NCBI GenBank assembly: GCA_049322255.1
Contig: JBMORE010000185.1
Span: forward strand, 1-52,659
Reading direction: 5' to 3'
DNA: 52,659 nt
Origin: Myxococcota bacterium
Lineage (GTDB): Bacteria; Myxococcota; Myxococcia; Myxococcales; Myxococcaceae
Below the pieces are notes generated by a model. The model did not search any database. It had not been told where the DNA came from and saw nothing but the letters and a program-made list of their open reading frames with translations. The position numbers were made by a program, and so were the translations under genes. This document shows, piece after piece, positions 22,486-48,250 of the stretch. How positions within the stretch are numbered: the stretch's first letter is position 1; each line of letters starts with the position of its first letter.

Positions 22486-22500
22486 GAGCCGTGTGGAACC

Positions 22501-23856
<1,356 letters not shown>

Positions 23857-23858
23857 CG

Positions 23859-26755: not shown

Positions 26756-26764
26756 GGAGGTAGG

Positions 26765-27298: not shown

Positions 27299-27578
27299 GA
27301 GCTCTCCGCAGCCGTCGACGAACGCGCGCGGGTCATAGCGAGGGGACCTAGCCGCGTCAACGGGGCGCGATAGTCCACCGATTGAGACGGTGGGTCCACG
27401 AACATGGAAAAACGGTTGGTTTGGGTTCGATTTCGATTGTTCCGTATTCGAATTCGAATGTTCTGCATTCGATCACCGTTGCGATGTAAAGGACCTTTCA
27501 TGCGGCGTAATGGTTTTCGCTTCCATCACATTCCAATTCGGTTCCGGCGGGTTCGATGATCGAATGCTCCGTATGATG

Positions 27579-28043: not shown

Positions 28044-28099
28044 ACGCCATAGATCCTCCGGCCGCGTCGCGCGTTCAAGCCTCTCGCACGGAGGAAACC

Positions 28100-29185
28100 A
28101 TGACCCGACGAGGCCTTCTGGCCGCCACGCTGGCGGCGACTCTCTCCTTCACCGCTTTCGCCGACGAGAAGTCGGAGCGCGCCGCCGCCGACCTGCTGCA
28201 CAAGCGGCTCCAGCACGAAAACCCACAGGACAAGGCGCTCCTCGATGCGGTGAAGGGCAAGGACATTGTCGTGGTCCGCGGGAGCATGGACCAAATCGAG
28301 GACGTTCTCCGCGCTGCGCGCATTCAGCACACGGTGATCGACCCCGAACGGGTCGCTCGCTACCCGCTCTCCTCGAGCATGATCCTGATGGTCAATTGCC
28401 CCGGCGACATGCCCGAGGCATCGCTTCGACGCATCGAGAAGTTCGTGCGTGCCGGCGGGCTGCTCTACACGACCGACTGGGCGCTGGCGAACGTGGTGCA
28501 GCGGCTCTTCCCCAAGACCATCGTCCACAACGGCGGCAGCACCGGAGACGAAGTGGTGCCGGTGCGCATCGACCAACAGAACGACAACCTCATGTCGCGC
28601 ATGCTCTTGCGCAAAGGAACCGACCCGCAGTGGTGGCTGGAGGGTGGCAGCTACCCGATCAAGATTCTCGACTCCAAGCGCGTGGAGGTGCTCGCCAGCT
28701 CGGCGACGATGGGCAAGCGCTACGGCGCCACGCCGGTGGTGGTGCGTTTCCGCCACGAAGACGGCGAGGTGATTCACGTCGTCAGCCATTTCTACCGACA
28801 GCTGTCGACCCAGGGACCGGCGGTGGCGGCGAAGGACGCGCAGATTGACGGGCTGTCCAAGTCCGACGCCGAGGATTTCAGGAAGAGCGAGGCGGCGGAG
28901 GCCAAGCTCGGCGACGTCGAGAGCAGCTACGCCTTCCAGCGCATGACCAGCAACCTGGTGACGACCAAGCAGAAGCGCAACGTGGAGCTGCAGGAGATCT
29001 ACAACCAGACAGTGCGCGCTCCCGCGGCGCTGCGCGGAGCTCCGTCGGCAAGCGCCGCGCCCGTGGTCGACGCTCGAAAAGGCACGCGGATGAAGGTGCT
29101 CACGCGTCAGGGCGACCAGGTGAAGGTGCGCGACGAATTCGGGAACGAGGGCTGGGTCGCCGCCGATGATCTGGTCGCCCACTGA
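28100..29185 (+). CDS. Exported hypothetical protein: putative Tat signal, GATase-like alpha/beta domain, C-terminal SH3b-like domain
   Basis: MTRRGLL...AFA signal; ILMVNCPG...FVRAGGLLYTTDWA; C-terminal ALRGAPS...KGTRMKVL...GDQVKVR...EGWV; GGAGG RBS. Confidence 0.65.
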   Translation: MTRRGLLAATLAATLSFTAFADEKSERAAADLLHKRLQHENPQDKALLDAVKGKDIVVVRGSMDQIEDVLRAARIQHTVIDPERVARYPLSSSMILMVNCPGDMPEASLRRIEKFVRAGGLLYTTDWALANVVQRLFPKTIVHNGGSTGDEVVPVRIDQQNDNLMSRMLLRKGTDPQWWLEGGSYPIKILDSKRVEVLASSATMGKRYGATPVVVRFRHEDGEVIHVVSHFYRQLSTQGPAVAAKDAQIDGLSKSDAEDFRKSEAAEAKLGDVESSYAFQRMTSNLVTTKQKRNVELQEIYNQTVRAPAALRGAPSASAAPVVDARKGTRMKVLTRQGDQVKVRDEFGNEGWVAADDLVAH

Positions 29186-29565
29186 TCGACGATCGCCTCA
29201 GCTTCGATTTCGACCTTCCACCTCGGGTCGAGCAGGCCAGCGACGACGATCATCGTGGCCGCTGGCCGGACGTTACGGAAGAAAGCCTCATGGGCGCGAC
29301 CGACTGCGTCGGCGTAGGCCGCGGAGGTGATGAACATGCGCGTGCGCACCACATGCGCGATGTCCGCATCCGCTTGCCGCAGCGCCTCAGCGACGATCTC
29401 GAAACAGCGCCGTGCTTGGACCTCCGGGTCGGGATCGCACGAGCCGTCAGGCCAGATGGGCGCGGTGCCTGAAACGAGCACGCGGTCTTTCACGCGCACC
29501 GCGCGGCAAAAGCCGATGGCGGCTTCGTAGGGAGAGCCGGATGAGATTCGCAGACGCTCGGCCAT
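29107..29565 (-). CDS. RidA family protein (Rid subfamily), with a C-terminal extension overlapping the convergent gene
   Basis: SSGSPYE..IGFCRAVR, VSGTAP, VVRTRMF, RPAATM, VEIEAEA. Confidence 0.9.
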   Translation of the reverse strand: MAERLRISSGSPYEAAIGFCRAVRVKDRVLVSGTAPIWPDGSCDPDPEVQARRCFEIVAEALRQADADIAHVVRTRMFITSAAYADAVGRAHEAFFRNVRPAATMIVVAGLLDPRWKVEIEAEAIVDQWATRSSAATQPSFPNSSRTFTWSP

Positions 29566-29643
29566 GGGGGAGGGCTTCTACCAGCTTCGCCGACGTCGGT
29601 ATGCCCTGGGGCTCACTGGCGGCTTCCGCGTCACCGACACACG

Positions 29644-29757
29644 ACTCGGCCAACACCATTGCACCCAGAATGCCATCTCCTGTTCGGCTTTCCTCGGGAG
29701 GGTCGGGCGAAAGTCGATTCTGGGTGCAATCGTGTTGGCGCCCGTCGGTTGCCGAGT
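29644..29757. repeat. Long imperfect inverted repeat / hairpin
   Basis: 29649-29671 GCCAACACCATTGCACCCAGAAT matches the reverse complement of 29717-29739 at 22/23; further inner and outer pairings are possible. Confidence 0.75.
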
Positions 29758-29810
29758 GGAGTCGAGGGCCGGCCCCGAATCGATGGAACGGTCCACACGC
29801 CCTCCGAGGT

Positions 29811-30228
29811 TCACGAACGCTCGTCGGGAACGATGCGGAGCTCAGTGGAGCGATCAGCAATGCTTAGCCGGCGCCAGGCGGCATAAAAGAGCGCAAGCGT
29901 CGCAGATGCGCTGCCCCAAAAGAGCACCACGCTTCCCATCGTGTTGGCGTCGATGGTTTGCCGAACCAGTCCGACGGTGCACCCAGCGATGGCACCGAAC
30001 ACCGCGGCGGGGAAGCGCCGAGTGCTGGGCAGAGAATGCCGCGCTCTGGAGGTCCTCTTCGCTCATCAACAGGCCCGTCGGAGTTGCGCCAGCCGAGCCC
30101 GTGCCCTCCGCAGTCACCACCAACCTCGCGCCACAAGCACACGTTCGATCGACCCGTACTTCCGATGACGACTCGAGGTTGCGACTCTGCGCAGTTCTGA
30201 TGAGTGAGAACAACCCCCACAGTCCCAT
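29811..30228 (-). pseudogene. Possible frameshifted small membrane-protein gene downstream of nuoB
   Basis: GGAG RBS plus ATG 16 nt after the nuoB stop. Frame A reads MGLWGLF...RTCACG...SAQHSA; the +1 frame continues with two TM-like segments (FPAAVFGAIAGCTVGLV; GSVVLFWGSASATLALFYAAW). Confidence 0.35.
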
Positions 30229-30243
30229 GTGGAATGCTCCGGT

Positions 30244-30813
30244 CTACTTGTTCAACTTGTTCATGTCGGCGAGCAGGTCGTGCGCGCCGGGACGCAGCGG
30301 GGGCTGCCGCTCGACCAGCTTGTGGGTCTGCCGGGAGATCTTGTCCTGCAGGAGCATGAGACCGTCGAGCACCTGCTCGGGCCGGGGCGGGCACCCGGGG
30401 ATGTACACGTCGACTGGAATGATGCGGTCGATGCCCTGGGACACCGCGTAGTTGTCGTAGAACCCACCCGAGCTGGCGCACACCCCGAACGCCACCACCC
30501 ACTTGGGGTCGCACATCTGCTCGTAGACGCGCTTCAAAATCGGCGCCTGCTTCATGTTGATGGTACCGATGACCATCAAGAGGTCGGCCTGGCGCGGGCT
30601 GAAGCGGGGGAACTCGGCTCCGAAGCGCGCGATGTCGTAGCGGCTGGCGGCGACCGACATGTACTCCATGCCGCAGCAGGCGGTGGCGAAGGGATAGGTG
30701 AACAGCGAGTACTTGCGCGCCCAGCCCAGGCCCTTGGAAACCATCTTCTCGAAGAAGCCCATCGCCTCTTCGCGGCGGGTCGCCAGCACAGGCGTGATGT
30801 CGAGCTCGGCCAT
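30244..30813 (-). CDS. nuoB: NADH-quinone oxidoreductase subunit B (set 1)
   Basis: [35 protein letters not shown]. Confidence 0.95.
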   Translation of the reverse strand: MAELDITPVLATRREEAMGFFEKMVSKGLGWARKYSLFTYPFATACCGMEYMSVAASRYDIARFGAEFPRFSPRQADLLMVIGTINMKQAPILKRVYEQMCDPKWVVAFGVCASSGGFYDNYAVSQGIDRIIPVDVYIPGCPPRPEQVLDGLMLLQDKISRQTHKLVERQPPLRPGAHDLLADMNKLNK

Positions 30814-30816
30814 CGT

Positions 30817-31188
30817 TTAGCTCTCCCAGGTGAGCGCGCCCTTCTTCCACACGTACAAAAGCCCAGCGACCAGGGTGGCGGCGAACACCGCCATCTCAGC
30901 GAAGCCAAACCACGCCAGCTCTTTGAAGCTCACCGCCCACGGGTAGAGAAACACCGCCTCCACGTCGAAGACGATGAAGAGCAGGGCGACCACGTAGAAC
31001 TTCACCGCGAAGCGCTGGCGCGCGCTGCCGATCGTCTCCGAGCCGCACTCGAAGGTCTCCGACTTGGTCGCGCTCGGCCGCGTGGGGCCCAAGATCGAGG
31101 CGATGCCGGTGATGGCCACCGCCAAAAGCCCGGCGACCAGGAGGACGACCGCCAGCGGGATGTAGGGCTCCAGGGGGTTGGGCGCCAT
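30817..31188 (-). CDS. nuoA: NADH-quinone oxidoreductase subunit A (set 1)
   Basis: FECG, KFYVVALLFIVFDVE..FLYPW, WKKGALTW. Confidence 0.94.
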   Translation of the reverse strand: MAPNPLEPYIPLAVVLLVAGLLAVAITGIASILGPTRPSATKSETFECGSETIGSARQRFAVKFYVVALLFIVFDVEAVFLYPWAVSFKELAWFGFAEMAVFAATLVAGLLYVWKKGALTWES

Positions 31189-31287
31189 GGGCGCGGGAAG
31201 ATGACACGGCTTCCAAGTGCTTGACAACAAAGGGCGTACCTGAAATCAACCCCGCGGTTTCGCCCTGTGCGCGTGAGGTGAAAAATC
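31189..31287. promoter_or_regulatory. 99-bp divergent control region shared by the two nuoA genes
   Basis: Head-to-head nuoA genes; contains TTGACA at 31221 and an IHF-like site at 31214-31226. Confidence 0.6.
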
Positions 31288-31737
31288 GTGCAGTTCGACT
31301 TCGCGATGGTGCTGGTCTTCGTGGTCGCGGCGGTTGGCTTTGCCATCGCCAACCTGGTGATCGGCTACTTCCTGCGGCCCCGCTTCCCCAACCCCGAGAA
31401 GGACATCATCTACGAGTGTGGCGAGCGGCCGATCGGCAGCGCGTGGATCAACTTCAACCCGCGCTTCTACATCATCGCCCTGGTGTTCGTGATCTTCGAG
31501 GTGGAGATCGCCCTCACCATTCCGGTGGCGCTGGTCTTCCGCAAGTGGGTGTACGAGCACCAAGGCATGACCGCCCTGTGGGAGATTTTGGCCTTCGTCG
31601 CCATTCTCTTCACCGGCCTGGTGTGGATTTGGGCGCGCCGTGACCTCGAGTGGGTGAAGAAGCTCGAAAACGACCAGGAGCCCGCGCCCGCAACGGCTGG
31701 CGTGTCGTCGCCCCGTTCCTACGTGGAGAACGTCTGA
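31288..31737 (+). CDS. nuoA: Complex I-like subunit A (set 2)
   Basis: [36 protein letters not shown]. Confidence 0.92.
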
Positions 31738-32309
31738 TGGCTACGCTCGACGAGAAGAAGGGCTACGCGCACGATCCAGGAGCCTCCACCGCCCTGGTGA
31801 CCACCCACACCAACGTGCTGGAGAACCTGATCAACTGGTCGCGGCGCTCCTCGATGTTCTACCTGCTCTTCGGGCTGGCCTGCTGCGGCATCGAGCTGAT
31901 GCAGACCGGCGGCCCGCGCGCCGACTTGGACCGCTTCGGCTCGGTGCCCCGCGCCACTCCACGCCAGAGCGACTTGATGATCGTCGCCGGCACGCTCACC
32001 TACAAGATGGCGCTGCGCTGCAAGCTCCTCTACGAGCAGATGGCCGAGCCGAAGTACGTCATCTCCATGGGTTCGTGCGCCAACTGCGGAGGCCTCTTCC
32101 AGCTCGCGTATTCGGTCTGCAAGGGCGTGGACAAAATCATCCCCGTCGATGTCTACGTGCCCGGTTGTCCTCCGCGGCCGGAGGCGCTCACCGAGGGCTT
32201 CTTGCGCATTCAGGAACTCATTCGCCGCGAGACCTTGAAGCAGAAGTACCGCCCCTCGCTCGGGCCTGCCGACACCGGCGCGGGCTACGTCGTTCCGGAG
32301 AGGGTCTAA
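31737..32309 (+). CDS. nuoB: Complex I-like subunit B (set 2)
   Basis: [42 protein letters not shown] overlap with nuoA. Confidence 0.95.
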
Positions 32310-32312
32310 AAG

Positions 32313-32927
32313 ATGCCCGCCCTCACCTCGGAGCAGATTCACGCCAAGCTCGCCGCCAAGTTCGGCGAGGCGGTGGGCACGCTGACGGCGGCGAAGGACC
32401 CGTTCTGCGTCTTCAAGAAGGAGAGGGTGGAGGAGATTTTCCGCTTCCTCCACGACGAGCCTGAGCTGGCCTTCGACTTCCTGCAAGACGAGACGGCCAC
32501 CGACCACCCCAAGGAGGGGCTCGTCCGCGTCGTCTACCACTTCTATAGCTACACCCACCGGCACCTGTTCGTGGGCAAGGTGGAGCTGGACCGCACCTCG
32601 CCCGAGCTGGCCAGCGCCGAGCCGGTGTGGAAGGCAGCCAACTGGATGGAGCGCGAGATCTACGATCTCTACGGAGTGACCTTCACCGGGCACTCCGACC
32701 TGCGGCGCATCTTGCTACCCTACGACTGGGTGGGGCACCCCTTGCGCAAGGACTACTCCGAGGCCGGCGGCTACCGCGACATCTCCAACGTGCGGGACAA
32801 CCCGCTCGATTTGTATTTGAACCTCGACCGGCAAATTCGCGCGGCGAAAGAGGAAGCGCGAGATGCCGCTTCGCCGCCGTCGATTGCCCCCGCTCCTCAG
32901 CCGGCGGCTCCTAAGGCGGAGGGCTGA
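32313..32927 (+). CDS. nuoC: Complex I-like subunit C (set 2)
   Basis: [24 protein letters not shown]...GHPLRKDY. Confidence 0.93.
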
Positions 32928-32929
32928 CC

Positions 32930-34096
32930 ATGGCGCTCGACCAGCTGCTCATCACCAAGAAGTTCGGGCCCGATGCGGACCAGGAGATGATCCTCAACAT
33001 GGGGCCGCAGCACCCCTCGACCCACGGGGTGATCAACTTCATCGTTCAAGCCGACGGCGAGATCATGAAGAAGGCGGTGCCCGAGGTCGGGTACCTGCAC
33101 CGCTCGATCGAGAAGATCGGCGAGACGGTGACCTACTCCGGCTTCATGCCGTACACCGACCGCATCGACTACATCGCGGCGATGTTCGCCAACGAGGGCT
33201 ACGCGCTGGCGGTGGAGAAGCTTTTGGGCATTCGCGCCCCCCCGCGGGCCGAGTACCTACGCGTCATTTCCTGCGAGCTCAACCGCATCGCCAGCCACCT
33301 CATCTCGGTGGGGACGATGGCGATGGACATCGGCGCGGTGACCCCTTTCCCCTACGCCTTGCGCGAGCGGGAGAGCATCAACGACCTCATCGAGGCGCTG
33401 TGCGGCGCGCGGCTCACCTACAACTACCACCGCATCGGCGGAGTGGCCTTCGACATGCCGCCCGACTGGGTGCCTCTGTGCCACAAGTGGCTCGACCACT
33501 TCGACAAGATTCTCGACGAGTGGGACCGGCTGATTTCGGGCAACGAGGTGTTCGTGCAGCGGCTGGCGGGGCTGTCAGTGATTCCCGCCCAGATGGCGAT
33601 CAACTACGGCCTGGTGGGACCTAACCTGCGCGCCTCGGGGGTCGACTTCGACCTACGCAAGGTGCACCCCTACAGCGCCTACCCCGACTTCGAGTTCAAG
33701 ATTCCGGTGGGGAGGGCGTACGGCGGCAAGCACCGCGGCGCGGTGGTGGGTGACTGCTACGACCGGTTCTATTGCCGCGTGCTCGAGTGCCGCGAGTCGG
33801 TGTCCATCGTGCGCCAGGCGCTCAAGAAGCTCCCGGGCGGCGAGTACATGGCCAAGGTGCCGAGGAAGATCAAACCGCCCGCGGGCGAGGCACAGTCCCG
33901 CGTCGAGTCGGCTCGCGGGGAGATGGCGTACTACGTCGTCTCCGACGGCTCGGAGCGCGCATACCGGGTCCGTGCTCGCACTGGTTCCTTCCTGGCGATG
34001 GGGATCATCGAGGAGCTCTCCAAGGGCCTGATGATCGCCGACTTGGTGGCGCTGATTGCCTCCCTCGATGTCGTCGCCCCGGAGATCGACCGCTAA
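32930..34096 (+). CDS. nuoD: Complex I-like subunit D (set 2)
   Basis: [32 protein letters not shown]-terminal EIDR. Confidence 0.94.
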
Positions 34097-34099
34097 GCC

Positions 34100-35371
34100 A
34101 TGCACGAGACGCTCGACACCTTCATCCGCGAAACGCTGCAGCAAGACCCGTCGACTTGGCCTTTGACCCAGGGCGTCTACCTGGTGGCGATGATGGTCAT
34201 CGGTGTGGCGCTCACCACCTTCGGTGCGGTGTTCGCCGGCATCGTCTCCTTCTGGGAGCGTCGCGTCGCCGGCCGCATGCAGTCGCGCATCGGCCCTAAC
34301 CGCGTGGGCCCGGGTGGGTTTCTCCAGTGGGTGGCGGACGCGCTCAAGCTGATTCTCAAGGAGGACTTGATTCCTGCCGAGTCGGACAAGATCCTCTTCC
34401 GCATCGCGCCGTACTTCGTCATCACCGGCTTCATTCTCACCTTCGTGGTGCTGCCGTTCGGTTACCACCTGAGCGCGACCCAGATGAACGTAGGGCTGTT
34501 CTACGTGGTGTCGATCACCTCGCTGGTGGTGGTGGGCATTCTCGTCTCCGGTTGGGCGTCGAACTCAAAGTGGTCGCTCTTCGGAGGCATTCGCGCCGCG
34601 GCGCAGGTGGTGAGCTACGAGATTCCGGCGGGCATGGTGATTCTGGTGCCGATCATCATGGCCGGCTCGCTCAACATGCATGAAATCATTCGCCAGCAGG
34701 GCGGGGCGCCGTGGGACTGGTTCGTCTTCCAGACCCCAATGGGTTACGCGGCGTTCTTCATTCTCTTCGTGGCGTTGCTCGCGGAAGGAAACCGCACTCC
34801 CTTCGATCTTCCAGAGGCGGAGAGCGAGCTCGTCTCCGGCTACAACACAGAGTACTCGGGCATGCGCTTCGGGTATTTCTTCCTCGCCGAGTGGGGGAAC
34901 CTCTGGGTGATGAGCGCCATTCTCACCACGCTCTTCCTCGGTGGGTGGCAGGTGCCGGGCATCTCGGTGGCGCAGCTTACCCAGTGGGAAGCGGGCAACG
35001 CGGTGCCGGTGTGGTTCTACATTGCCTCGGCGATCGTCTTTTGCACCAAGGTGGTGGTGCTGGTGAACGTGGTCATCTGGATTCGGTGGACCTTCCCCCG
35101 CATTCGCGTCGACCAGATGATGTCCTTGTGTTGGAAGTACCTGGTGCCCATCGGCTTGGGGCTGGTGATTTTGGCTGCGTTCACCGAGGTGCTCTCCTTC
35201 CAGCTGTTCGGAGAGGCGGCGAAGGGGCAGGCGCCCTTGGCGAGCGCGCGCGGGGTGCTCCATTTCCTCTTCTTTGTCGTGGGCGGATTGCTCCCGATTG
35301 CGGCCTTCGTCATGAAGACTTTCCAAAACATCCGCCTCACCGGGGAGCGGGTGGACTTGAGCAACTGGTAG
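34100..35371 (+). CDS. nuoH: Complex I-like subunit H (set 2)
   Basis: ERRVAGRMQSRIGPNRVG, KEDLIP, AAQVVSYE, NRTPFDLPEAESELV.GY.TEYSG, RWTFPRIRVDQ. Confidence 0.94.
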   Translation: MHETLDTFIRETLQQDPSTWPLTQGVYLVAMMVIGVALTTFGAVFAGIVSFWERRVAGRMQSRIGPNRVGPGGFLQWVADALKLILKEDLIPAESDKILFRIAPYFVITGFILTFVVLPFGYHLSATQMNVGLFYVVSITSLVVVGILVSGWASNSKWSLFGGIRAAAQVVSYEIPAGMVILVPIIMAGSLNMHEIIRQQGGAPWDWFVFQTPMGYAAFFILFVALLAEGNRTPFDLPEAESELVSGYNTEYSGMRFGYFFLAEWGNLWVMSAILTTLFLGGWQVPGISVAQLTQWEAGNAVPVWFYIASAIVFCTKVVVLVNVVIWIRWTFPRIRVDQMMSLCWKYLVPIGLGLVILAAFTEVLSFQLFGEAAKGQAPLASARGVLHFLFFVVGGLLPIAAFVMKTFQNIRLTGERVDLSNW

Positions 35372-35385: not shown

Positions 35386-36285
35386 ATGCCCGTCGCCAAC
35401 TACGTCGGCAACATCAAGGACACGGTGAAGAGCGCCTGGGAGGGGATGAGCATCACCCTCTCCTACATGTTCCGCCGCCCGATGACCGTGCAGTACGCCG
35501 GCCCGGAGGAGGCGCGGCGCACCGGGGAGCTCATTCAGAACACGATGCCCTCGCGCTACCGCGGCTTCCTCGAAGTGGACATGGAGATTTGCACTGCCTG
35601 CCAGGCTTGCGAGCGGGCCTGTCCGATCAACGTCATCGCCATCGAGATCGAGAAGGACCCGTCCAACCCCAAGCAGCGGGCGATGACCCGCTTCGACATC
35701 GACGAGGCCAAGTGCATGTACTGCGGCCTGTGCGTCGAGCCGTGTCCCACCGGCGCCATTCAGCACACCAAAGAGTTCGAAGGCGCCCAGCGCTTCCTCT
35801 CCAACATGGTGTTGCGCTTCGTCGACCCGGCCAGGCCGGTGGCGCCTTACAAGCCGCCCAAGGGAGCGACGGCGTTTCCTCGGGTGATGCTGGGAGAGAT
35901 TACCCGCGGGCTGGTCAAACGGTGGGACTCGCCGCCGCCGCCGTTCCCGGTGGCCGGCACTGCGGCTCCGGTGGCAAAGAAGGACTCTGGCGACAGCAAG
36001 GCGCTGGCGCTCGAGCTGGCGAAGAAGGCGATCGGCGTCGATACCAAGAAGCTCGCCGCCATCCTCGAAGAAGCCCAGGCCGGCACCGACTGCGGCGCGT
36101 GCACCTACCCCACCTGCCGCGACTACTCGGAGGCGATGGCTTCAGGCAAAGAGAAGCGCCTGCACATGTGCGAGCCCGGCGGCGCCGAGAGCGCCCGCGC
36201 CACCCACATCATCATGGACTCGGTGAAGGCCGGGGCGGTGACGGTGACTCCCGAGGCGGAGAACGCCAAGTACGAGAGCCCGTAG
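35386..36285 (+). CDS. nuoI: Complex I-like subunit I fused to a C-terminal RnfB-type Fe-S domain
   Basis: TVQY, RYRG, CTACQACERACP, CMYCGLCVEPCP; then a Pro/Ala linker and DCGACTYPTC-x17-CEPGG. Confidence 0.9.
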   Translation: MPVANYVGNIKDTVKSAWEGMSITLSYMFRRPMTVQYAGPEEARRTGELIQNTMPSRYRGFLEVDMEICTACQACERACPINVIAIEIEKDPSNPKQRAMTRFDIDEAKCMYCGLCVEPCPTGAIQHTKEFEGAQRFLSNMVLRFVDPARPVAPYKPPKGATAFPRVMLGEITRGLVKRWDSPPPPFPVAGTAAPVAKKDSGDSKALALELAKKAIGVDTKKLAAILEEAQAGTDCGACTYPTCRDYSEAMASGKEKRLHMCEPGGAESARATHIIMDSVKAGAVTVTPEAENAKYESP

Positions 36286-36310
36286 GTCCAGTCTAAAAGT
36301 CGGTTGCCAA

Positions 36311-36410
36311 NNNNNNNNNNNNNNNNNNNNNNNNNNNNNNNNNNNNNNNNNNNNNNNNNNNNNNNNNNNNNNNNNNNNNNNNNNNNNNNNNNNNNNNNNN
36401 NNNNNNNNNN
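36311..36410. other. Scaffold gap (100 N) flanked by an exact 127-bp duplication (assembly artefact)
   Basis: 36184-36310 is identical to 36411-36537. Confidence 0.9.
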
Positions 36411-36519
36411 GCCGAGAGCGCCCGCGCCACCCACATCATCATGGACTCGGTGAAGGCCGGGGCGGTGACGGTGACTCCCGAGGCGGAGAACGCCAAGTAC
36501 GAGAGCCCGTAGGTCCAGT

Positions 36520-37146
36520 CTAAAAGTCGGTTGCCAAACCCACCATTCCTCCCGAGGGCGTCGGCATCGCCACCGGTCGAATGCTCTTGGCGACATTGCT
36601 CAAGTGACTCTCTTCCAGCCAGTGCGCTGGAAGGATGATCATGACAAGAGGTGCGGCGAGGAGCAGCGGGAAGAAGAAGATCCCCGGGATGAGCAGAGCG
36701 ACGCCGAAGAGAGCGCCCTTGATGGCTGTGCTCCAGTCGCCAGTTCCATTCAGCGCCTGGTGGAGCGCCAAGGCTCCGAACCCCGCCGAGCACGCTATCG
36801 CCAGCGCCGACCCTCCCGCGAACACCAGCATGAATGCGAGCCGTTCGAGCGTGCCGCCACGCCCTGCAACAGACCCCATGAAGCCCAAGGCGAAGTAGAG
36901 CCCGGTGGCGGCACCCGCGGCAAAGGCGGTTGCGCCGAGCGTGGAAACCGTGACCCGAAGGAGCGAATAACGTTCGAGGTTCGCCGCCGACGGGGCCGGA
37001 GCTCGAGCAGCCGGGGCAACTGTCTCGTCAGCGGGCTGGCCCACGTCCGAGGGCAACGGTGGCGGCGAGAGCGGAGCGAGCGGGCCGTTGGCAAACGCCG
37101 CGCCGGAAAGAAGCAGGGTGGTGGCAAGAATTGGAACGGTTCGCAT
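36520..37146 (-). CDS. Hypothetical membrane protein (signal peptide, Pro-rich linker, Gly/Ala-rich TMs), antisense within the nuo set 2 cluster
   Basis: MRTVPILATTLLLSGAAFA signal; several hydrophobic segments; C-terminal PVAMPTPSGGMVGLATDF. Confidence 0.6.
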   Translation of the reverse strand: MRTVPILATTLLLSGAAFANGPLAPLSPPPLPSDVGQPADETVAPAARAPAPSAANLERYSLLRVTVSTLGATAFAAGAATGLYFALGFMGSVAGRGGTLERLAFMLVFAGGSALAIACSAGFGALALHQALNGTGDWSTAIKGALFGVALLIPGIFFFPLLLAAPLVMIILPAHWLEESHLSNVAKSIRPVAMPTPSGGMVGLATDF

Positions 37147-37310
37147 GCTGGGCAATCAGGCAACAGGCTTGCCCCGTACTTTACGACGCGGATTCAAGGC
37201 CTTGTACGGGGAATGCCGCTCCATGTGCAGCGGCCTTCTTGGCGTCTTGTGCGAGCGCTTGCTCATCGAAGGGATTAGAAGGCCCTCGGAAAGTCGCTCA
37301 CAAATCGCTT

Positions 37311-37323: not shown

Positions 37324-37357
37324 TTCCTCGCGCTTGCGGCGAAAAGCGCACCTCCTG

Positions 37358-38020
37358 ATGGCTGACGACAACGTGAAGAAGCCAGAGCGATCGACGCACT
37401 ATGCGGAGATCCTTGGCGGGCTGCTCTTGATGGCCTTCTTGGTGGCGGTGGTGTTCTGGGGCGCAGCGAAGATGCTCCCGGGCATGGCGCCAGTGGCGGC
37501 GAAGGGCGCCGAGCTGGCCAAGCCCACCGACTTGCTCTTCTTCCTCATCGCCGGAGTGACGATGGTGTCGGCCGCCGGCGTGGCCTTTTCGCGCAACATC
37601 ATCTACTCAGCGCTCGCGCTCCTGGGCGCGCTCTTGGGCACCGGGGCGCTCTACATTTTCTTGAACGCCGACTACGTGGCCATCACCCAGCTGCTCATCT
37701 ACGTCGGCGGCGTGCTGGTGCTCATTCTCTTCGCGGTGATGCTCACCAATCGCATCGATGAAAAGAAGCAGTCGAACCCGATGAGCAACGTCTTCCCTGG
37801 TCTGGGGCTCTTGGGCGCGCTGCTGCTCCTCTTTGGATTTATCGCGGCGAAGGCGCCCTGGAAGCTGGGCGACGCAAAGCTCTCTGTCAGCTCGACGGTG
37901 GACAAGATCGGCGACCTCTTCTTGGGGCACTACCTGCTCGCCTTCGAGGTCATCTCGCTGCTCTTGCTCGCCACGCTCATCGGCGCGGTGGTCATCGCCC
38001 GCAAGGAAATCAAGGAGTAG
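37358..38020 (+). CDS. nuoJ: Complex I-like subunit J with an extra N-terminal hydrophobic helix
   Basis: RNIIYSAL, QLLIYVGGVLVLILFAVML, YLLAFEVISLLLL..LIGAVVIARK. Confidence 0.92.
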   Translation: MADDNVKKPERSTHYAEILGGLLLMAFLVAVVFWGAAKMLPGMAPVAAKGAELAKPTDLLFFLIAGVTMVSAAGVAFSRNIIYSALALLGALLGTGALYIFLNADYVAITQLLIYVGGVLVLILFAVMLTNRIDEKKQSNPMSNVFPGLGLLGALLLLFGFIAAKAPWKLGDAKLSVSSTVDKIGDLFLGHYLLAFEVISLLLLATLIGAVVIARKEIKE

Positions 38021-38022
38021 CC

Positions 38023-38337
38023 ATGGTGACCATCGGGCTGCCTCACTTCCTCATCGTCGGCGCAGTGCTCTTCGCCTTCGGCACCTACACCGTCGTCACT
38101 CGCTCCAACGCGGTGGGCATCTTGATGGGCGTCGAGCTCATCTTGAACGCCGCCAATCTGAACTTCGTGGCCTTCAACCGCTTCAACCCCACGCCGCATT
38201 TGAGCGGTCAGGTCTTCAGCCTATTCGTCATCGTGCTGGCGGCGGCGGAGGCGGCGGTGGCGCTGGCCATCGTGCTCGCCATCTACATGAACCAGAAGAG
38301 CATCGACGTCTCCGAGGCAGACACCTTGCGGGAATAG
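38023..38337 (+). CDS. nuoK: Complex I-like subunit K
   Basis: LMGVELILNAANLNFV and LAAAEAAVALAI; both conserved Glu present. Confidence 0.95.
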   Translation: MVTIGLPHFLIVGAVLFAFGTYTVVTRSNAVGILMGVELILNAANLNFVAFNRFNPTPHLSGQVFSLFVIVLAAAEAAVALAIVLAIYMNQKSIDVSEADTLRE

Positions 38338-38340
38338 CGA

Positions 38341-40872
38341 ATGAACATCTTCTTTGCGCTCAATGAATTGGTGCTGGCGTCGGGAGCCCACGCCCCTGCC
38401 GCCGCTCCACACTCACCACAGGAAGTCGTCCACGTCGGGTACCTGTGGCTCATTCCGCTCTTGCCCCTGCTCGGCTCGGCGGTGAACGCCTTCGTCGGCC
38501 ACAAGCTGCAGAAGCTCTACGGGAAGAAAATCACCTCGCACATCGCCATCGGCGCGATGGTGGGTGCGTTCGCGGTGGCAGTGGTGGCCTTCGCGCAGAT
38601 GCTCTCGCTGCCTGCGGAGCAGCGCTACCTCTCCGACTTCGTCTTCAACATGTTTACCGCGGGCGACGTGCAGGCCGACCTGGCGTTCGCCCTCGACCCG
38701 CTGTCGATGATGATGACGCTGATCATCACCTTCATCGGTACGCTCATTCACATCTACTCCACCGGGTACATGGCGGACGAGCCGGCCTACTGGCGGTTCT
38801 TCTGCTACCTGAACCTCTTCGTCTTCTCGATGCTCCTGTTGGTCATGGGAGACAACTTCGTCCTCATGTTCTTCGGCTGGGAGGGCGTGGGGCTGTGCAG
38901 CTACCTCTTGATTGGGTTCTGGTACGAGGACAAGGAGAAGGCGCAGGCGGGCGTCAAAGCGTTCGTCACCAACCGCTTCGGCGACTTCGGCTTCGTGCTC
39001 GGGCTGTTCCTTCTCTTCTGGGCGCTGGGCGGCAGCTGGACCAAGGAGGACAACGTTCTGCCTGCGCGCGAGGCGGTATGGGCGCGTAGCGACCCCGCTT
39101 ACGTGCCGCAGGTCGAGAGCGGAACCGTCTATCGGAAGGACCTCGCGTACGCGCCGAGGCAGCCTCCTTCTACCTATGCCGAGGTGGAGGCGCAGAAGGG
39201 CGAGGGCGGCAAGTGGCAGGCAGGCCCGGCGGCGGCGGTACGGGCCGGTCTCAAGGTCGGCCCCACGCTCAACTTCCGGGAGCTACGCGATCAGGTCGTC
39301 ATCGAGGCGACCGGAGTGAAGAAGCGGCTCCTCGGGATGGAGTTCCTCGGCATTCCGCTCCTGGCGCTGGTGGGCATTCTCTTCTTCGTCGGCGCCACCT
39401 CGAAGAGCGCGCAGATTCCGCTGTACGTGTGGCTGCCGGACGCCATGGCCGGCCCCACGCCGGTGTCGGCGCTCATCCACGCGGCCACCATGGTCACCGC
39501 CGGCGTCTACATGGTGGCGCGGCTCAACTTCATCTTCTCCCTGTCCCCGATCGCGATGACGGTGATTGCCGTCACCGGAGCGGCCACCGCGATGTTCGCC
39601 GCCTCCATCGGGTTTTTGCAGCACGACATCAAGAAGGTGCTGGCGTACTCCACGGTGTCGCAGCTGGGCTTCATGTTCATCGGCGTCGGCGTGGGCGCCT
39701 ATTGGGCCGGCGTCTACCACTTGCTCACCCACGCCTTCTTCAAGGCCTGTCTCTTCTTGGGCTCGGGCTCGGTGATCCTCGGCTGCCACCACGAGCAGGA
39801 CATGCGGAAGATGGGCGGCCTCAAGAAGTACATGCCGCTCACCGAGAAGACCTACCTCTACGCCTGCATCGCCATCGCCGGCTTCCCCATCGCCAACGGC
39901 TTCTTCTCCAAGGATGAAATCCTCTGGAAGGCGTTCGACTCGGGGAGCAACCTGCTCGATCCCACCATCGGCAAGGTCATTTGGTTCGTCGGCTGGCTCA
40001 CCGCGCTGGGCACCAGCTTCTACATGTGGCGCAGCTACTACATGACCTTCACCGGCGAGTACCGGGGAGGGGTGGGGCACGGACACGCGCACGCGGATGC
40101 GCATGCTCCTTCGGCTACGCCAGTGTTGGCGACGCACTCGGTGGGGGCGGCGCACGCAGCGACCTTCGACCACGACGTGGGTCACGGCGGCGATTCACAC
40201 GGGCACGGGCACCACGGTGGTACTCCTCACGAGTCGCCCCGGGCGATGACCTGGGTGCTCGCGACCTTGGCCATTGGCTGTTTCCTCACCATCGCCTTGG
40301 GCTTCTGGGCGCCGTTGGGGATTACCCCCGCGCTGGAGCACTGGCTCGAGCCGGTACTTTCGCCTTCGGCCGCGCTGGTCCACGAGCGCAGCCTCAAGCA
40401 GGGGCACGCCCTGGAGTACCTGCTCATTGGTCTTTCAGTGGCGGTGGCGTTCGGCGGCTGGCTCATCGCCCGCGCGCTCTACAAAGACGCCAAGAGCACC
40501 GTGCCGGCAACGCTGGCGGCCAAATTCCCGCGGGTGCACCGAGTCGTCTACAACAAGTATTACGTCGACGAGCTGTACCAGAAGACGGTGCTCGCGGGGG
40601 CGATGGTCATCGCCAAGGCCTCCAGCGCGTTTGACCGCATCGTCATCGACGGTGCGGTGGGTGCGGTCGCCGCCGTCGGCAGGTTCGTGTGCAACATCGA
40701 GGGCGCGATCGACAAGTACCTGGTCGATGGTGCGGTGAACTTCGTCGCCGACACCGCCCTGCGGTCTGGCAAGGCGATTCGCCGGCTTCAGACCGGGCGT
40801 ATTCAGCACTACCTCTACGCGGCGCTCGCCGGCGCACTGATTGTCGCCGGCATCAACTTCCTCATCCGGTAG
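38341..40872 (+). CDS. nuoL: Complex I-like subunit L (843 aa; loop insertion, His-rich loop, extended lateral helix)
   Basis: GWEGVG, NRFGD, KSAQIPLYVWLPDAMAGPTPVSALIHAATMV, DIKKVLAYST, FFSKDEI, YYVDELY...LQTG. Confidence 0.95.
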   Translation: MNIFFALNELVLASGAHAPAAAPHSPQEVVHVGYLWLIPLLPLLGSAVNAFVGHKLQKLYGKKITSHIAIGAMVGAFAVAVVAFAQMLSLPAEQRYLSDFVFNMFTAGDVQADLAFALDPLSMMMTLIITFIGTLIHIYSTGYMADEPAYWRFFCYLNLFVFSMLLLVMGDNFVLMFFGWEGVGLCSYLLIGFWYEDKEKAQAGVKAFVTNRFGDFGFVLGLFLLFWALGGSWTKEDNVLPAREAVWARSDPAYVPQVESGTVYRKDLAYAPRQPPSTYAEVEAQKGEGGKWQAGPAAAVRAGLKVGPTLNFRELRDQVVIEATGVKKRLLGMEFLGIPLLALVGILFFVGATSKSAQIPLYVWLPDAMAGPTPVSALIHAATMVTAGVYMVARLNFIFSLSPIAMTVIAVTGAATAMFAASIGFLQHDIKKVLAYSTVSQLGFMFIGVGVGAYWAGVYHLLTHAFFKACLFLGSGSVILGCHHEQDMRKMGGLKKYMPLTEKTYLYACIAIAGFPIANGFFSKDEILWKAFDSGSNLLDPTIGKVIWFVGWLTALGTSFYMWRSYYMTFTGEYRGGVGHGHAHADAHAPSATPVLATHSVGAAHAATFDHDVGHGGDSHGHGHHGGTPHESPRAMTWVLATLAIGCFLTIALGFWAPLGITPALEHWLEPVLSPSAALVHERSLKQGHALEYLLIGLSVAVAFGGWLIARALYKDAKSTVPATLAAKFPRVHRVVYNKYYVDELYQKTVLAGAMVIAKASSAFDRIVIDGAVGAVAAVGRFVCNIEGAIDKYLVDGAVNFVADTALRSGKAIRRLQTGRIQHYLYAALAGALIVAGINFLIR

Positions 40873-40878
40873 ATCTCC

Positions 40879-42570
40879 ATGACCAACCACCTGCTCAGCC
40901 TCATCATCTTCCTTCCGCTCGCCGGGGCGGCGCTCATCGCGCTCACGATGGCCCTGCCGATGGCCAAAGAGGTGCGAGACAACGCCTCGCGGTGGCTCTC
41001 CCTCCTCGTCTCCGCCCTGGCGATGCTCGGCGGCCTCTACCTCTGGACGAGCTACACCGGCGGCGGAGTGCAGTACGTCGAGCGCTTCACGTGGATTCGC
41101 TCGCTGGGCATCGAGTACTACGTGGGGGTCGACGGCATCAGCGTGTCGATGGTCATCCTCTCCACCCTCGTCTCCTTCATCGCCACCATCGCCTCCATGC
41201 CCTGGTGGAAGGGCGCCAAGGAGCACGACGACCCGCACCACCCGCACTTCTCCCAGGTGAAGGTGCCCGGCTACATGGCGATGCTGCTCATCCTCCAGAC
41301 GGGCATGAGCGGGACCTTCGCCGCGCTGGACATGTTCCTCTTCTTCGTCTTCTGGGAGGTCATGCTCCTGCCGATGTACTTCCTCATCGGCATCTGGGGC
41401 GGGCCGCGCAAGGAGTATGCGGCGATCAAGTTCTTCCTCTACACCCTGGCCGGCTCGGTGCTGCTGCTCCTCGCGATCATCGCGCTCCACTACAAGAGCG
41501 GGGATTTGGGCCTGCTCGCCAAGCTGCGCGAGTCCAACCCGATGGCGTTCGCCGCGCTTCTCGACGGGAAGGCGTTGGTTCAGGGGCCAGACGGCGCGCT
41601 CGGCTACCTCCTGGGAGACGGCGCCTTCGTCCCCCGTACTTTCGACATGGTGGTTTTGGCCAAGCTGGGTCAAAGCAGCTTGTTCGACTTGGTGGGCCCG
41701 TTCCTCTTCGGCGTCACCTTCGCCAAGTTGATGTGGGTGTTCATGTTCATCGCCTTCGCGGTGAAGGTGCCGATGGTGCCCTTCCACACCTGGCTCCCCG
41801 ATGCCCACGTCGAGGCGCCCACGCCCATCTCGGTCATCCTCGCCGGGGTGCTCCTCAAGATGGGCATCTACGGCATGCTCCGTTTCAACTGGGCGATGCT
41901 CCCTGGGGCGACGTCGGCCTTCGCCACCTTCGTGGCGGTCTTCGGGGTCATCAACGTCGTCTACGCGGCGATGGTTTGCCTGGCGCAGAAGGACTTGAAG
42001 AAGCTGATCGCCTACTCCTCGGTGTCGCACATGGGCTTTTCGCTCCTCGGCATGGCGGCGATGACCGAGGCGGGCATCAGCGGAGCGGTGCTCAACCTCT
42101 TCACCCACGGCCTCATCAGCCCGATGCTCTTCCTCATCGTGGGCGTCATCTACGACCGCGCCCACCACCGGGAGATCGAGGGCTTCGGCGGGATCGCCAA
42201 GGTGGTGCCCGAGTACACCGCGGTGATGGGCCTGGCCTTCTTCGCCTCCCTGGGCCTGCCGGGCCTGGCGGGCTTCGTGAGCGAGTTCATGGTGCTCAAC
42301 GGCTCGTTCATGAACCTGCCGTGGCACACCGCGCTCGCGGCGCTCTCGGTCATCATCACCGCGGCCTACTACCTGTGGACGGTGCAGCGCATGTTCCTGG
42401 GCAAGCTCAACGAGAAGTACGCCGAGCTTCCCGACTTGAACTGGCGCGAGCGCTTCACCCTCTACCCGCTGGCGGCGCTCACCTTGGTGTTCGGGTTCTA
42501 TCCGAACGTGATGCTCAACCTCATCAACTCGGACTTGTACAAGCTGCTTCGGGTGGTGAAGGGGGCGTAA
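40879..42570 (+). CDS. nuoM: Complex I-like subunit M
   Basis: FWEVMLLPMY, AVKVPMVPFHTWLPDAHVEAPT, LLKMGIYG, LIAYSSVSHMG, GFVSEF. Confidence 0.95.
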   Translation: MTNHLLSLIIFLPLAGAALIALTMALPMAKEVRDNASRWLSLLVSALAMLGGLYLWTSYTGGGVQYVERFTWIRSLGIEYYVGVDGISVSMVILSTLVSFIATIASMPWWKGAKEHDDPHHPHFSQVKVPGYMAMLLILQTGMSGTFAALDMFLFFVFWEVMLLPMYFLIGIWGGPRKEYAAIKFFLYTLAGSVLLLLAIIALHYKSGDLGLLAKLRESNPMAFAALLDGKALVQGPDGALGYLLGDGAFVPRTFDMVVLAKLGQSSLFDLVGPFLFGVTFAKLMWVFMFIAFAVKVPMVPFHTWLPDAHVEAPTPISVILAGVLLKMGIYGMLRFNWAMLPGATSAFATFVAVFGVINVVYAAMVCLAQKDLKKLIAYSSVSHMGFSLLGMAAMTEAGISGAVLNLFTHGLISPMLFLIVGVIYDRAHHREIEGFGGIAKVVPEYTAVMGLAFFASLGLPGLAGFVSEFMVLNGSFMNLPWHTALAALSVIITAAYYLWTVQRMFLGKLNEKYAELPDLNWRERFTLYPLAALTLVFGFYPNVMLNLINSDLYKLLRVVKGA

Positions 42571-42578
42571 GTCACATT

Positions 42579-42614
42579 CCCTCACCCTTGCCCTCTCCCT
42601 TCGGGAGAGGGGAG
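42579..42614 (+). repeat. REP-like palindromic element, copy 2, between nuoM and nuoN
   Basis: CCCTCACCCTTGCCCTCTCCC-TTC-GGGAGAGGGGAG; 9-bp perfect GC-rich stem. Confidence 0.8.
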
Positions 42615-42620
42615 ATTGAC

Positions 42621-44204
42621 ATGAACCACGTCCTCAACAACGTCGAGAGCCTGGCGTTCTTCGCCCCGGAGATCGTCCTCACCGCAGGGGCGATGGCCAT
42701 CTTCGTGCTCGACCTAGGCCTCAAGAATGCGCCCAAGCGGGTCGGCATTCTCACCGGGGCGAGCCTGGTCGTTCTCGCCCTTGCCACCCTAGCCACCTAC
42801 TGGTCGACCCAGCTGACCTACGTGGTCGACGGCCAGGCGTACACCGCCATCCAGCAGCCGATGGGTTTGTTCAACGGGCTCATCGTGCTCGACCCCTGGG
42901 CGGTGTTCTTCAAGTACCTCTCGTGGGCGGTCACCGCCTTGGCGATCGTCATCGCCGCACCCTCGTTGGAAATCTCCTCCGAGCGCATGGGCGAGTACTG
43001 CGCGATGCTCTTGGCCATCGCCGTCGGCCTGTCGCTGATGGCCAGCTCCACCGACATGCTGATGATGGTCATCGGCGTCGAGCTGGTGTCGATGGTCAGC
43101 TACGCACTGGCGGGCTTTCGTAAGCACCACCGCCGTTCCTCCGAGGCCGCGCTCAAGTACGTGGTCTACGGCGGCGTGGCGAGCGGAATGATGCTCTTCG
43201 GCATGAGCTGGCTCTACGGGCTCATCGGCACCACCAACGTGGTGGGCGCCGCCGGCCGCATCAACGAGTACGGCGAGAAGGTCTATTTGCAGCTGCTCCA
43301 GACCGGCTCGGAGGGCGCCGGACGCGTGGCGCTCATCGTGGCCATCGTGCTCATCCTCTCGGGCATCGGGTACAAGATTGCCGCGGTCCCCTGGCACATG
43401 TGGTGCCCCGACGTTTACGAAGGAGCGCCCACCCCGTTCACCGCCTTCCTCTCGGTGGGTCCCAAGGCCGCAGGCTTCGCCTTGGCGGTGCGGGTGCTCT
43501 ACGGCGCGATGAGCGAGAGCGGCGGACAGGACTTGGCCACTGTGTTGCGCGACGTTCCCTGGCCGGAAATCATCGGGGTGCTCGCCGCGGTGACGATGAC
43601 CGTGGGCAACTTCGCCGCGCTCAACCAGACCAATGTGAAGCGCATGCTGGCTTACAGCTCGATCGCTCACGCCGGTTACCTTTTGATGGGTCTGGCGGCG
43701 GCCTCGGCGACCGGATCAGAGTCGATCGCCATCTACCTGGTGGTCTACCTGTTCATGAACCTGGGGGCCTTCCTGGTGGTGGGGACGGTGGGGCGGCTAG
43801 CGGGGTCAGAGTCGATCTTCGAGTACCGAGGCCTCTCCGCCCGTGCGCCCTTCGCCGCGGTGGCCTTTGCCATCTTCCTCTTCTCGCTCACCGGCTTGCC
43901 GCCGCTGGCGGGCTTCGTGGGCAAGTTCCACCTGTTCAAGGCGCTCATCGATCGGGGAGAAGCCTGGCACGTCACCTTGGCCCTCATCGGTGTCCTCAAC
44001 AGCGCGGTGTCGCTCTACTATTACGCGCGCATCGTCAAGGCGATGTTCCTCGACAAGCCAGCCAACACCGCCCGCATTCCCGTGCCGAAGTCGTACAACT
44101 TCCTGCTCGGGTTTTTGGTGGCGGCGGTGATTGGCCTCGGGGTCTACTTCGAGGGGCTGCGCACGCTCGCTGGGGCCTCGGTGCACCTGTTCGGTCATTC
44201 TTAA
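42621..44204 (+). CDS. nuoN: Complex I-like subunit N
   Basis: GVELVS, SEAALKY, YKIAAVPWHMWCPDVYEGAPTP, GPKAAG, KRMLAYSSIAHAGY, GFVGKF. Confidence 0.95.
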   Translation: MNHVLNNVESLAFFAPEIVLTAGAMAIFVLDLGLKNAPKRVGILTGASLVVLALATLATYWSTQLTYVVDGQAYTAIQQPMGLFNGLIVLDPWAVFFKYLSWAVTALAIVIAAPSLEISSERMGEYCAMLLAIAVGLSLMASSTDMLMMVIGVELVSMVSYALAGFRKHHRRSSEAALKYVVYGGVASGMMLFGMSWLYGLIGTTNVVGAAGRINEYGEKVYLQLLQTGSEGAGRVALIVAIVLILSGIGYKIAAVPWHMWCPDVYEGAPTPFTAFLSVGPKAAGFALAVRVLYGAMSESGGQDLATVLRDVPWPEIIGVLAAVTMTVGNFAALNQTNVKRMLAYSSIAHAGYLLMGLAAASATGSESIAIYLVVYLFMNLGAFLVVGTVGRLAGSESIFEYRGLSARAPFAAVAFAIFLFSLTGLPPLAGFVGKFHLFKALIDRGEAWHVTLALIGVLNSAVSLYYYARIVKAMFLDKPANTARIPVPKSYNFLLGFLVAAVIGLGVYFEGLRTLAGASVHLFGHS

Positions 44205-46950: not shown

Positions 46951-47026
46951 GAAAGGACTCCTAGGGGTGAAGTCGGCCGCGAAACCTATACCCAATTCCG
47001 GCGGCGGAGGTATACCCCCGCGCCCC

Positions 47027-48238: not shown

Positions 48239-48250
48239 GGGTGCAGGGAG

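Follow-up and report, generated by a model that had tools for sequence, protein, structure and literature searches.

A predicted RnfB-type iron-sulphur arm on NuoI of a head-less complex I in Myxococcota and its candidate polyferredoxin partner

It is a standing question what feeds 11-subunit forms of complex I outside cyanobacteria. In the accessible text of PMC3144371, PMC11238625 and PMC7021789, the donor of such enzymes is either unknown or a ferredoxin; the accessible parts of the first two report that no common donor could be found and propose a docking-platform role. The question is raised again by a 52,659-nucleotide stretch of DNA from a Myxococcota bacterium (GCA_049322255.1, contig JBMORE010000185.1, positions 1-52,659, forward strand), called the window below. 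The window belongs to a 99.6% complete genome (G000), whose nearest named relatives are Myxococcaceae metagenome-assembled genomes (MAGs). It carries a nuo operon without nuoEFG, in which the nuoI product (P0001) ends in a linker and a four-cysteine domain resembling that of RnfB, hereafter the arm. What might this arm do? In 301 Myxococcota genomes, its presence was found to be associated with that of a small polyferredoxin, whose gene lies in or beside the operon of a b6-type complex in six genomes. NuoI, PF04060, 11-subunit complex I and b6-type complexes are already known; the association is new. Our literature search, outside the coverage of which lay subscription papers and supplements, found no paper on a PF04060-Nuo fusion or on this polyferredoxin, and the fusion is not mentioned in the accessible parts of PMC3144371, PMC11238625, PMC4453560 and PMC4758237.

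The identity of the gene and of its extension was examined first by sequence comparison. P0001 has the two ferredoxin-type motifs of NuoI (2 x CxxCxxCxxxCP) and is encoded after nuoH in a nuo operon. All of its 49 best Foldseek matches are NuoI, NdhI or TYKY-type chains, the top rank of NdhI not being separated from other NuoI chains. The TIGR01971 score (88.5 bits) lies below the cut-off of 113.05, as does the score of its headed counterpart in this genome (101.4 bits). Pfam recognizes two Fer4 domains and, at residues 233-257, the FeS family PF04060 (34.1 bits for a cut-off of 23), and the NCBIfam RnfB model covers residues 207-278. The cysteine motif, C236-x2-C239-x4-C244-x17-C262-x-PGG, is located at 36091-36183. 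A sequence-only reading of the window had described this fusion, with its linker (residues 180-203) and its motif, and had asked for the Pfam scan; the translation and the scan bear it out. A six-frame scan of the genome's 51,678 open frames found a single instance of the strict form of the motif, and P0001 also provides the genome's single PF04060 match. A search with residues 190-299 returned 69 proteins, of which 62 were aligned, leaving out fragments P0004, P0005, P0037 and P0040, as well as P0047 and the frameshifted-looking P0059 and P0069. The four cysteines are invariant in these 62 full-length homologues and in 25 of 25 sequences of a second alignment, so that the refutation by non-conserved cysteines that the earlier reading had set out does not apply.

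The three best matches of residues 201-285 in a sequence search of the PDB are RnfB N-terminal domains (7zc6_B, 8ahx_B, 9eri_B; E 0.01-0.23). An AlphaFold2 model of P0001, built on the 62-row alignment, has a mean pLDDT of 68.8 and a pTM of 0.46, with a helical C-terminal domain; modelled in isolation, this domain reaches a pLDDT of 84. In fold searches, no match of the isolated domain was significant: Acetobacterium woodii RnfB (9eri_B, residues 31-92; Z 5.0, rmsd 3.7 over 61 residues) ranked second, an unrelated helical protein coming first, and AcsC (4c1n_G and 2ycl_A) had rmsd 2.1-2.3 at E values of 3.8-4.8. By sequence, the arm is a PF04060 domain of the RnfB FdI/B8 type. It shares the four-cysteine motif and, as predicted, a helical domain on probably flexible linkers with the N-termini of RnfB (PF04060; 7ZC6, 8AHX, 9ERI) and of AcsC (2YCL, 4C1N). 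According to the accessible text of PMC9588780 and bioRxiv 2024.06.21.599731, the RnfB domain is highly mobile and, as a shuttle, takes electrons from the chain of RnfB clusters to the centre in the membrane; the RnfB-type identity and the mobility in Rnf on which the earlier reading had built are thus both upheld. By analogy, the arm of P0001 would bind a [4Fe-4S] cluster. The low pLDDT of the linker, together with the Pro/Ala linkers between tandem arms, suggests a flexible tether, low model confidence being no proof of motion. In RNA runs X17, X18 and X20, only short pieces of relatives were found.

The arm belongs to a second nuo operon of the order nuoA-B-C-D-H-I-(inserted ORF)-J-K-L-M-N, from which nuoEFG are absent. 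Its NuoD (PF00346, 291.9 bits) lacks the NiFe-binding CxxC motifs and is not that of a group 4 hydrogenase. Judged by gene content, the operon is predicted to encode an 11-subunit complex I-like enzyme. Like cyanobacterial NDH-1 and the Desulfitobacterium enzyme, it comprises nuoABCDHIJKLMN without nuoEFG. Unlike them, it carries an additional cluster domain on NuoI, once or twice, coexists with a headed complex I and is tracked by a polyferredoxin and a b6-type complex. The genome also holds a complete 14-subunit set with one NuoEFG set and a single NuoF domain (nuoE, F, K, L, M and N on contig C31; nuoG at 23859-25706 of the window). The earlier description of a complex without NuoEFG therefore holds for the operon and not for the cell. 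A split Rnf complex was considered and rejected: PF03116 (RnfD/E) was unmatched in this 99.6% complete genome, the control being positive in 4 of 14. Neither a membrane-anchored cluster chain nor an rnfACDEG set accompanies the single PF04060 copy; true RnfB operons were seen in the controls G228, G250 and G037. The arm thus differs from RnfB in its place at the C-terminus of NuoI rather than behind a membrane helix, and the polyferredoxin is a separate, unlinked gene.

This polyferredoxin, a 162-residue protein with four predicted clusters (P0341; G000:C15:26268-26753, or L085:6266-6754, minus strand), was found by a motif scan of the genome. It scores above the cut-off of the RnfB model and is often annotated automatically as RnfB, though Rnf is absent. 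Its distribution was compared with that of the arm in one sample of 301 Myxococcota genomes, each at least 85% complete. The orthologous (second-type) NuoI clade was counted at E≤1e-50, with 10 weak matches set aside, and the polyferredoxin at E≤1e-35. The NuoI clade is present in 98 genomes, of which 28 are armed (27 strong matches plus G024, with altered cysteine spacing; seven have two arms) and 70 arm-less. The polyferredoxin occurs in 25 of the 28 armed genomes, in 4 of the 70 with arm-less NuoI and in 3 of the other 203, i.e. in 7/273 without the arm. The contrast is kept within families (armed versus not): 7/7 versus 1/118 in f1, 6/6 versus 1/3 in f5, 4/5 versus 1/14 in f14 and 1/1 versus 0/2 in f10. 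KorA-type 2-oxoacid:ferredoxin oxidoreductase, used as the control gene, is found in 20/28 armed genomes versus 97/273 others. As a prediction check, four arm-less lineages outside Anaeromyxobacteraceae were inspected (L014, L034, L067, L068; completeness not given). In none of them was the polyferredoxin present, nor did any cytochrome b exceed 49% identity. The distant armed L061, by contrast, has both the polyferredoxin and a b6-type cytochrome b. Among further armed loci, 21/23 have the polyferredoxin; ten are sample genomes again, and the new ones give 11/13.

The polyferredoxin leads to a b6-type complex. All 32 genomes with the polyferredoxin fall among the 50 with a b6-type cytochrome b. 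Six genomes from four families (G142, G177, G268, G043, G048 and G093) have its gene in or beside the b6 operon and on the same strand; in G201, G260 and G272 the distance is about 13 kb. The top PDB matches of the cytochrome b encoded on contig C56 of the window genome are cytochrome b6; its Cys66 aligns with Cys35, so that the heme cn cysteine is kept. The octaheme cytochrome c has eight CxxCH motifs. No gene for an NAD(P) flavoprotein was seen among the ORFs of G000:C56:1-14000. The complex resembles the anammox complexes Kuste4569-4574 and Kustd1480-1485 of Kuenenia stuttgartiensis, with a b6-like four-helix cytochrome b, a heme cn cysteine, a subunit IV and an octaheme cytochrome c. The anammox models have four Fe-S clusters leading from cytochrome b to FAD, and flavoproteins are encoded in the operons (accessible parts of PMC12954380 and PMC5600118). 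A cytoplasmic chain of four Fe-S clusters would thus be common to both (PMC12954380, as far as accessible). In the Myxococcota clade, in contrast, the place of an NAD(P) oxidoreductase is taken by a flavin-free polyferredoxin. Such a chain would lack a catalytic end of its own, a gap that the arm may fill. Among 20 b6/octaheme loci inspected, three more distant ones from Myxococcota (L235, L237 and L243) encode NuoF- or GltD-like flavoproteins next to the operon, as in anammox bacteria, and the polyferredoxin is absent from them. Member names of the polyferredoxin cluster carry only Myxococcota or Deltaproteobacteria labels; one atlas cluster is commonest in Verrucomicrobiota.

Two observations on these loci may be added. 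In L221 (12472-13892), L222 and L223, one same-strand run holds the b6 operon together with the genes for the polyferredoxin and for a HEAT-repeat protein (the latter scanned in L221). Subunit IV of the C56 type has a conserved WPxxxxxE motif, whose glutamate may match the heme cn ligand of firmicute complexes.

Related arms were then found on other subunits of complex I. Run against 50%-identity representatives, the arm profile returned, among the best 150 of 1766 matches, NuoI fusions, many CysJ-like FAD/NAD-binding proteins and one NuoC fusion. The NuoC fusion as a query gave 186 matches; among the 120 listed, 98 were NuoC-arm and 4 NuoB-arm proteins, the named ones mostly from Thermoanaerobaculia. 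Of 19 metagenome loci of this type, 14 have an arm on NuoC and 10 an arm on NuoB, some nuoB having been missed by the gene picker. NuoI is short and arm-less there, and nuoD is followed by nuoH without nuoEFG in 14/14 spanning loci. In a domain tree of 60 columns, with weak support, the NuoB and NuoC arms cluster with the CysJ type and not with the NuoI type, which points to independent fusions. The accessible text of PMC3144371 raises the possibility that partners are contacted by extensions of NuoC.

Several side observations concern this domain family. Thermoanaerobaculia-type operons with arms on both NuoB and NuoC, and without nuoEFG, are seen at L093, L095, L098, L103 and L108, and ATP synthase-like genes follow operons of the NuoB/NuoC-arm type at L095, L103 and L105. 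The domain is also fused to a helical Planctomycetota protein of about 250 residues or to a GidB-like methyltransferase (P0228, P0238, P0152, P0160; P0111, P0182), and fragment P0071 has three tandem copies. In the CysJ-like P0122, P0168 and P0125, it precedes the FAD- and NAD-binding domains, P0125 having nitrite/sulfite reductase domains as well. CysJ-like sulfite reductase alpha subunits with an Fe-S domain (NCBIfam PRK06214) likewise tether a member of this family to an FAD/NAD-binding module. Unlike the fused NuoI, this enzyme is soluble and assimilatory, and on the same weak tree its subtype groups with the NuoB/NuoC arms.

From these data we propose, at about even confidence, that the arm, on its tether, carries single electrons between cluster N6a and the polyferredoxin/b6 module. 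The proposal builds on the domain identity and its conservation, the nuoEFG-less operon, the co-occurrence and the position of the polyferredoxin gene in six genomes. The arm would sit on that face of the Q-module which lies under NuoG in a headed complex I. NuoB, NuoC and NuoI are all subunits of the Q-module, over which the missing head would lie, and for this reason the arm may reach an NdhI-like ferredoxin site; in NDH-1, ferredoxin docks at NdhI and reduces N6a (accessible text of PMC7021789). It would swing between N6a of NuoI and its partner, as FdI/B8 does between the polyferredoxin chain of RnfB and RnfAE. The partner it would contact is most likely P0341, as the cytoplasmic module of the b6-type Rieske/cytochrome b complex with octaheme cytochrome c. 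Arm and polyferredoxin would together correspond to RnfB split in two halves, and would link head-less complex I to the b6 complex on the cytoplasmic side, without NADH. The entry or exit port that the earlier reading had imagined gains from the NuoB/NuoC fusions in nuoEFG-less operons and from the tandem arms; its electron-transfer role is still a matter of inference.

Electron entry into complex I appears distinctly the likelier direction, since heme-copper oxidase-like genes are present together with a KorAB-type enzyme whose ferredoxin needs reoxidation. Electrons would pass from the polyferredoxin to the arm, then through N6a, N6b and N2 to quinone, with proton pumping. They could originate in ferredoxin-linked catabolism, a KorAB-type enzyme being encoded in the genome, or in the low-potential branch of the b6 complex. 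In the latter case a cytoplasmic loop, which we regard as rather improbable, would be closed: the low-potential electron of quinol bifurcation would go from hemes bN/cN to the polyferredoxin, the arm and N6a, and back to quinone through complex I. The Q-cycle would then be extended by a second proton pump, with neither NAD nor soluble ferredoxin in between, and N-site quinone reduction would be bypassed. It would also have been assembled twice, with NuoI arms in Myxococcota and NuoB/NuoC arms in Thermoanaerobaculia. Myxobacteria probably use menaquinone. The loop requires a low-potential branch near the level of NADH, and its energetics are marginal. For anammox, in the accessible text of PMC12954380, such a branch is proposed and not shown, from the potentials of the Rieske centres (above +300 mV) and of menaquinone (about -70 mV).

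A number of observations weigh against a shuttle to the polyferredoxin. Its gene lies beside the second nuo operon in none of the 32 loci examined, and in G080, G085 and G106 (f14) it is 2-3 kb from nuoEF. Four f2 genomes (G201, G260, G272, G286) combine polyferredoxin, b6 complex and an arm-less NuoI, with no copy of the domain elsewhere; the arm is thus no precondition of the module. Polyferredoxin and b6 complex are present in G299, G288 and G055, where the second NuoI was not found. Conversely, the armed G024, G031 and G088 have neither; G024 has the altered cysteine spacing, G031 has PAG in place of PGG, and G088 is 86% complete. G116 has a close b6 complex, and neither arm nor polyferredoxin. 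At nine distant b6 loci without flavoprotein, no cytoplasmic module was seen in the stretch examined. Since the arm and the polyferredoxin each carry a net negative charge, a simple electrostatic docking of the two is not favoured; the fold match of the arm is weak by itself. A NuoF domain occurs in 34 of 35 carrier genomes, and their gene content would allow a shared head. The genomes are kin and mostly MAGs, so that Fisher P values overstate the association; shared ecology or co-inheritance could yield the same profile. The comparison uses one control gene, and the support consists of genes and genome profiles.

Could the arm instead be a general built-in ferredoxin, taking electrons from soluble donors (KorAB, FdxA, a group 3b-type hydrogenase) to N6a? 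The match with b6 complex and polyferredoxin would then reflect a shared ferredoxin-fed respiratory lifestyle rather than any direct contact. We hold this to be possible, though doubtful. KorAB-type genes, FdxA (G000:C109) and a sulfhydrogenase-type NiFe enzyme are all encoded in the window genome, and cyanobacterial NDH-1 accepts electrons from free ferredoxin at NdhI (PMC7021789, accessible text). In CysJ-like proteins the domain occupies the usual place of flavodoxin, and the four f2 genomes retain the b6 module without the arm. However, KorA tracks the arm poorly, being present in 43 of the 70 genomes with arm-less orthologues, and KorAB was rejected as the specific partner on this profile. 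The joint absence of polyferredoxin and b6 complex in the four arm-less lineages would also be left unexplained. A generic ferredoxin or soluble oxidoreductase had been the partner envisaged in the sequence-only reading; the best correlate turned out to be a specific polyferredoxin tied to a b6-type complex.

A further explanation is that the second complex borrows the headed NuoEFG, the arm acting as a placeholder or switch over N6a when the head is off. The single NuoF of the window genome, the NuoF domains of the carriers and the polyferredoxin near nuoEF in three f14 genomes are compatible with it. Many relatives likewise have the two operons in a head-to-head arrangement, and a single nuoEFG with two copies of the rest was considered a possible source of two isozymes in Gemmatimonas-type genomes (accessible text of PMC4453560). 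However, the two sets are divergent (NuoD 37% and NuoI 26-28% identical), and the headed NuoI of the same genome is arm-less. Moreover, a cap needs neither four invariant cysteines, nor tandem copies, nor a link to b6. Head sharing is therefore judged unlikely.

Quite unlikely, too, is a role of the arm off the catalytic path, whether in sensing redox state or oxygen or in storing Fe-S clusters or aiding their assembly. The arm seems to have been lost repeatedly, and related domains occur on proteins that do not look respiratory (the GidB-like P0111 and the 253-residue Planctomycetota P0228). On the other side, the domain joined three Q-module subunits, each in nuoEFG-less operons, and tracks a redox partner. 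It transfers electrons in characterised RnfB, and so does the AcsC domain.

Finally, a mis-join at the scaffold gap or a chance cysteine pattern has practically no chance of being right: the gap and a duplicated 127-base stretch do lie directly behind the domain, but the motif ends before the overlap, and the fusion recurs in 34/80 loci of other genomes and in 62 aligned proteins. Positions 36184-36310 are identical to 36411-36537, and an identical 127-base overlap is found at 17 of the 42 gaps of the assembly. Unitigs of run X1, which may be the source sample, cover nuoI as overlapping pieces, none bridging core and domain. They include two strain variants over 35802-36153; none of the differences listed (69 more are unlisted) hits a cysteine codon. 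The mis-join that the earlier reading had wished to see checked is thereby set aside.

The distribution of the arm within NuoI was examined at the best 80 of 580 genome loci. The arm is present in 34 and absent from 46, at least five of which run off the locus end. Tandem pairs, about 100-120 residues apart and joined by Pro/Ala linkers, occur at 11/80 loci. The window's own family has the arm in only 7 of 125 genomes, and Anaeromyxobacter-labelled loci retain a Pro/Ala tail without the arm. In a quick NuoI tree with midpoint root (L010, L033, L035 and L059 dropped by the motif filter), armed proteins are on deep branches and arm-less ones are nested in several places; the arm-less L014 falls within the window's own clade. 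An ancestral arm with repeated loss appears the simplest reading of this tree. With 70 of 98 orthologous NuoI arm-less, the arm is dispensable. The idea that an NdhI-like lysine patch sets armed NuoI apart was rejected: armed and arm-less orthologues have the same hairpin, and the NdhI alignment ended before those residues. At L203, L210, L211, L212 and L232 (families f14 and f30), the second operon ends after the armed nuoI, nuoJ-N not being adjacent.

Table 1. Features of the locus and of the b6 operon (window positions unless a contig is named)
Position	Strand	Feature	Basis or remark
21784..31230	-	Headed complex I genes: nuoA, nuoB, (inserted genes), nuoC, nuoD, nuoG, nuoH, nuoI without arm	Head to head with second operon
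31288..35371	+	nuoA 31288-31737; nuoB 31734-32309; nuoC 32313-32927; nuoD 32930-34096; nuoH 34100-35371	ORFs, Pfam; nuoEFG absent between D and H
35386..36285	+	nuoI of second complex I operon with C-terminal PF04060 domain, P0001	Translation (299 aa), Pfam
35590..35745	+	Two NuoI ferredoxin motifs, C69-C79 and C110-C120 (clusters N6a/N6b); beta-hairpin between, with invariant K90 and K96	Sequence, Pfam, alignment, model
35926..36000	+	Pro/Ala/Lys-rich linker, residues 181-205; residues 185-202 with pLDDT <50	AlphaFold2 model
35995..36240	+	Helical four-Cys domain of RnfB FdI/B8 type (predicted)	Pfam, alignment, PDB sequence matches, model
36184..36537		Scaffold gap 36311-36410 with exact 127-base overlap on both flanks; artefact repeating the last 33 nuoI codons	Sequence comparison
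36520..37155	-	Hydrophobic 211-aa ORF between nuoI and nuoJ	Pfam/NCBIfam: nothing matched
37334..44204	+	nuoJ 37334-38020; nuoK 38023-38337; nuoL 38341-40872; nuoM 40879-42570; nuoN ends 44204, start codon not fixed	ORFs, Pfam
G000:C56:2046-7746 (L225)		b6 operon: Rieske, split b6-type cytochrome b with CxGG, subunit IV, 1175-aa octaheme cytochrome c	

The interval between nuoI and nuoJ differs in length among relatives and is a site of variable insertions. Within the headed set, between nuoB and nuoC (27299-30243), are a thioesterase-like ORF, an SH3-domain protein and a RidA-family protein. A stand-alone thioredoxin-like [2Fe-2S] ferredoxin gene (19377-19991, minus strand; weak PF01257) lies 1.8 kb downstream of the headed nuoI, and at 46715-51522 a deoxyhypusine synthase-like gene (scanned) is near an arginine decarboxylase-like gene (read by eye). 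Elsewhere in the genome, contig C144 (L084, L089) carries a group 3b-like sulfhydrogenase-type NiFe cluster and a KorAB-type 2-oxoacid:ferredoxin oxidoreductase. The heme-copper oxidase-like genes are tblastn matches on C166, of uncharacterised function.

Overall, the armed enzyme would bring its own shuttle to the question of what feeds 11-subunit complex I outside cyanobacteria. With such a shuttle and one small soluble partner named by the genomes, the question can be put to the test on two short proteins. Another open question, that of the cytoplasmic electron exchange of heme cn in b6-type complexes, is touched by this partner as well. The occurrence of the domain on three subunits of the Q-module suggests a repeated solution to the loss of the NADH head.

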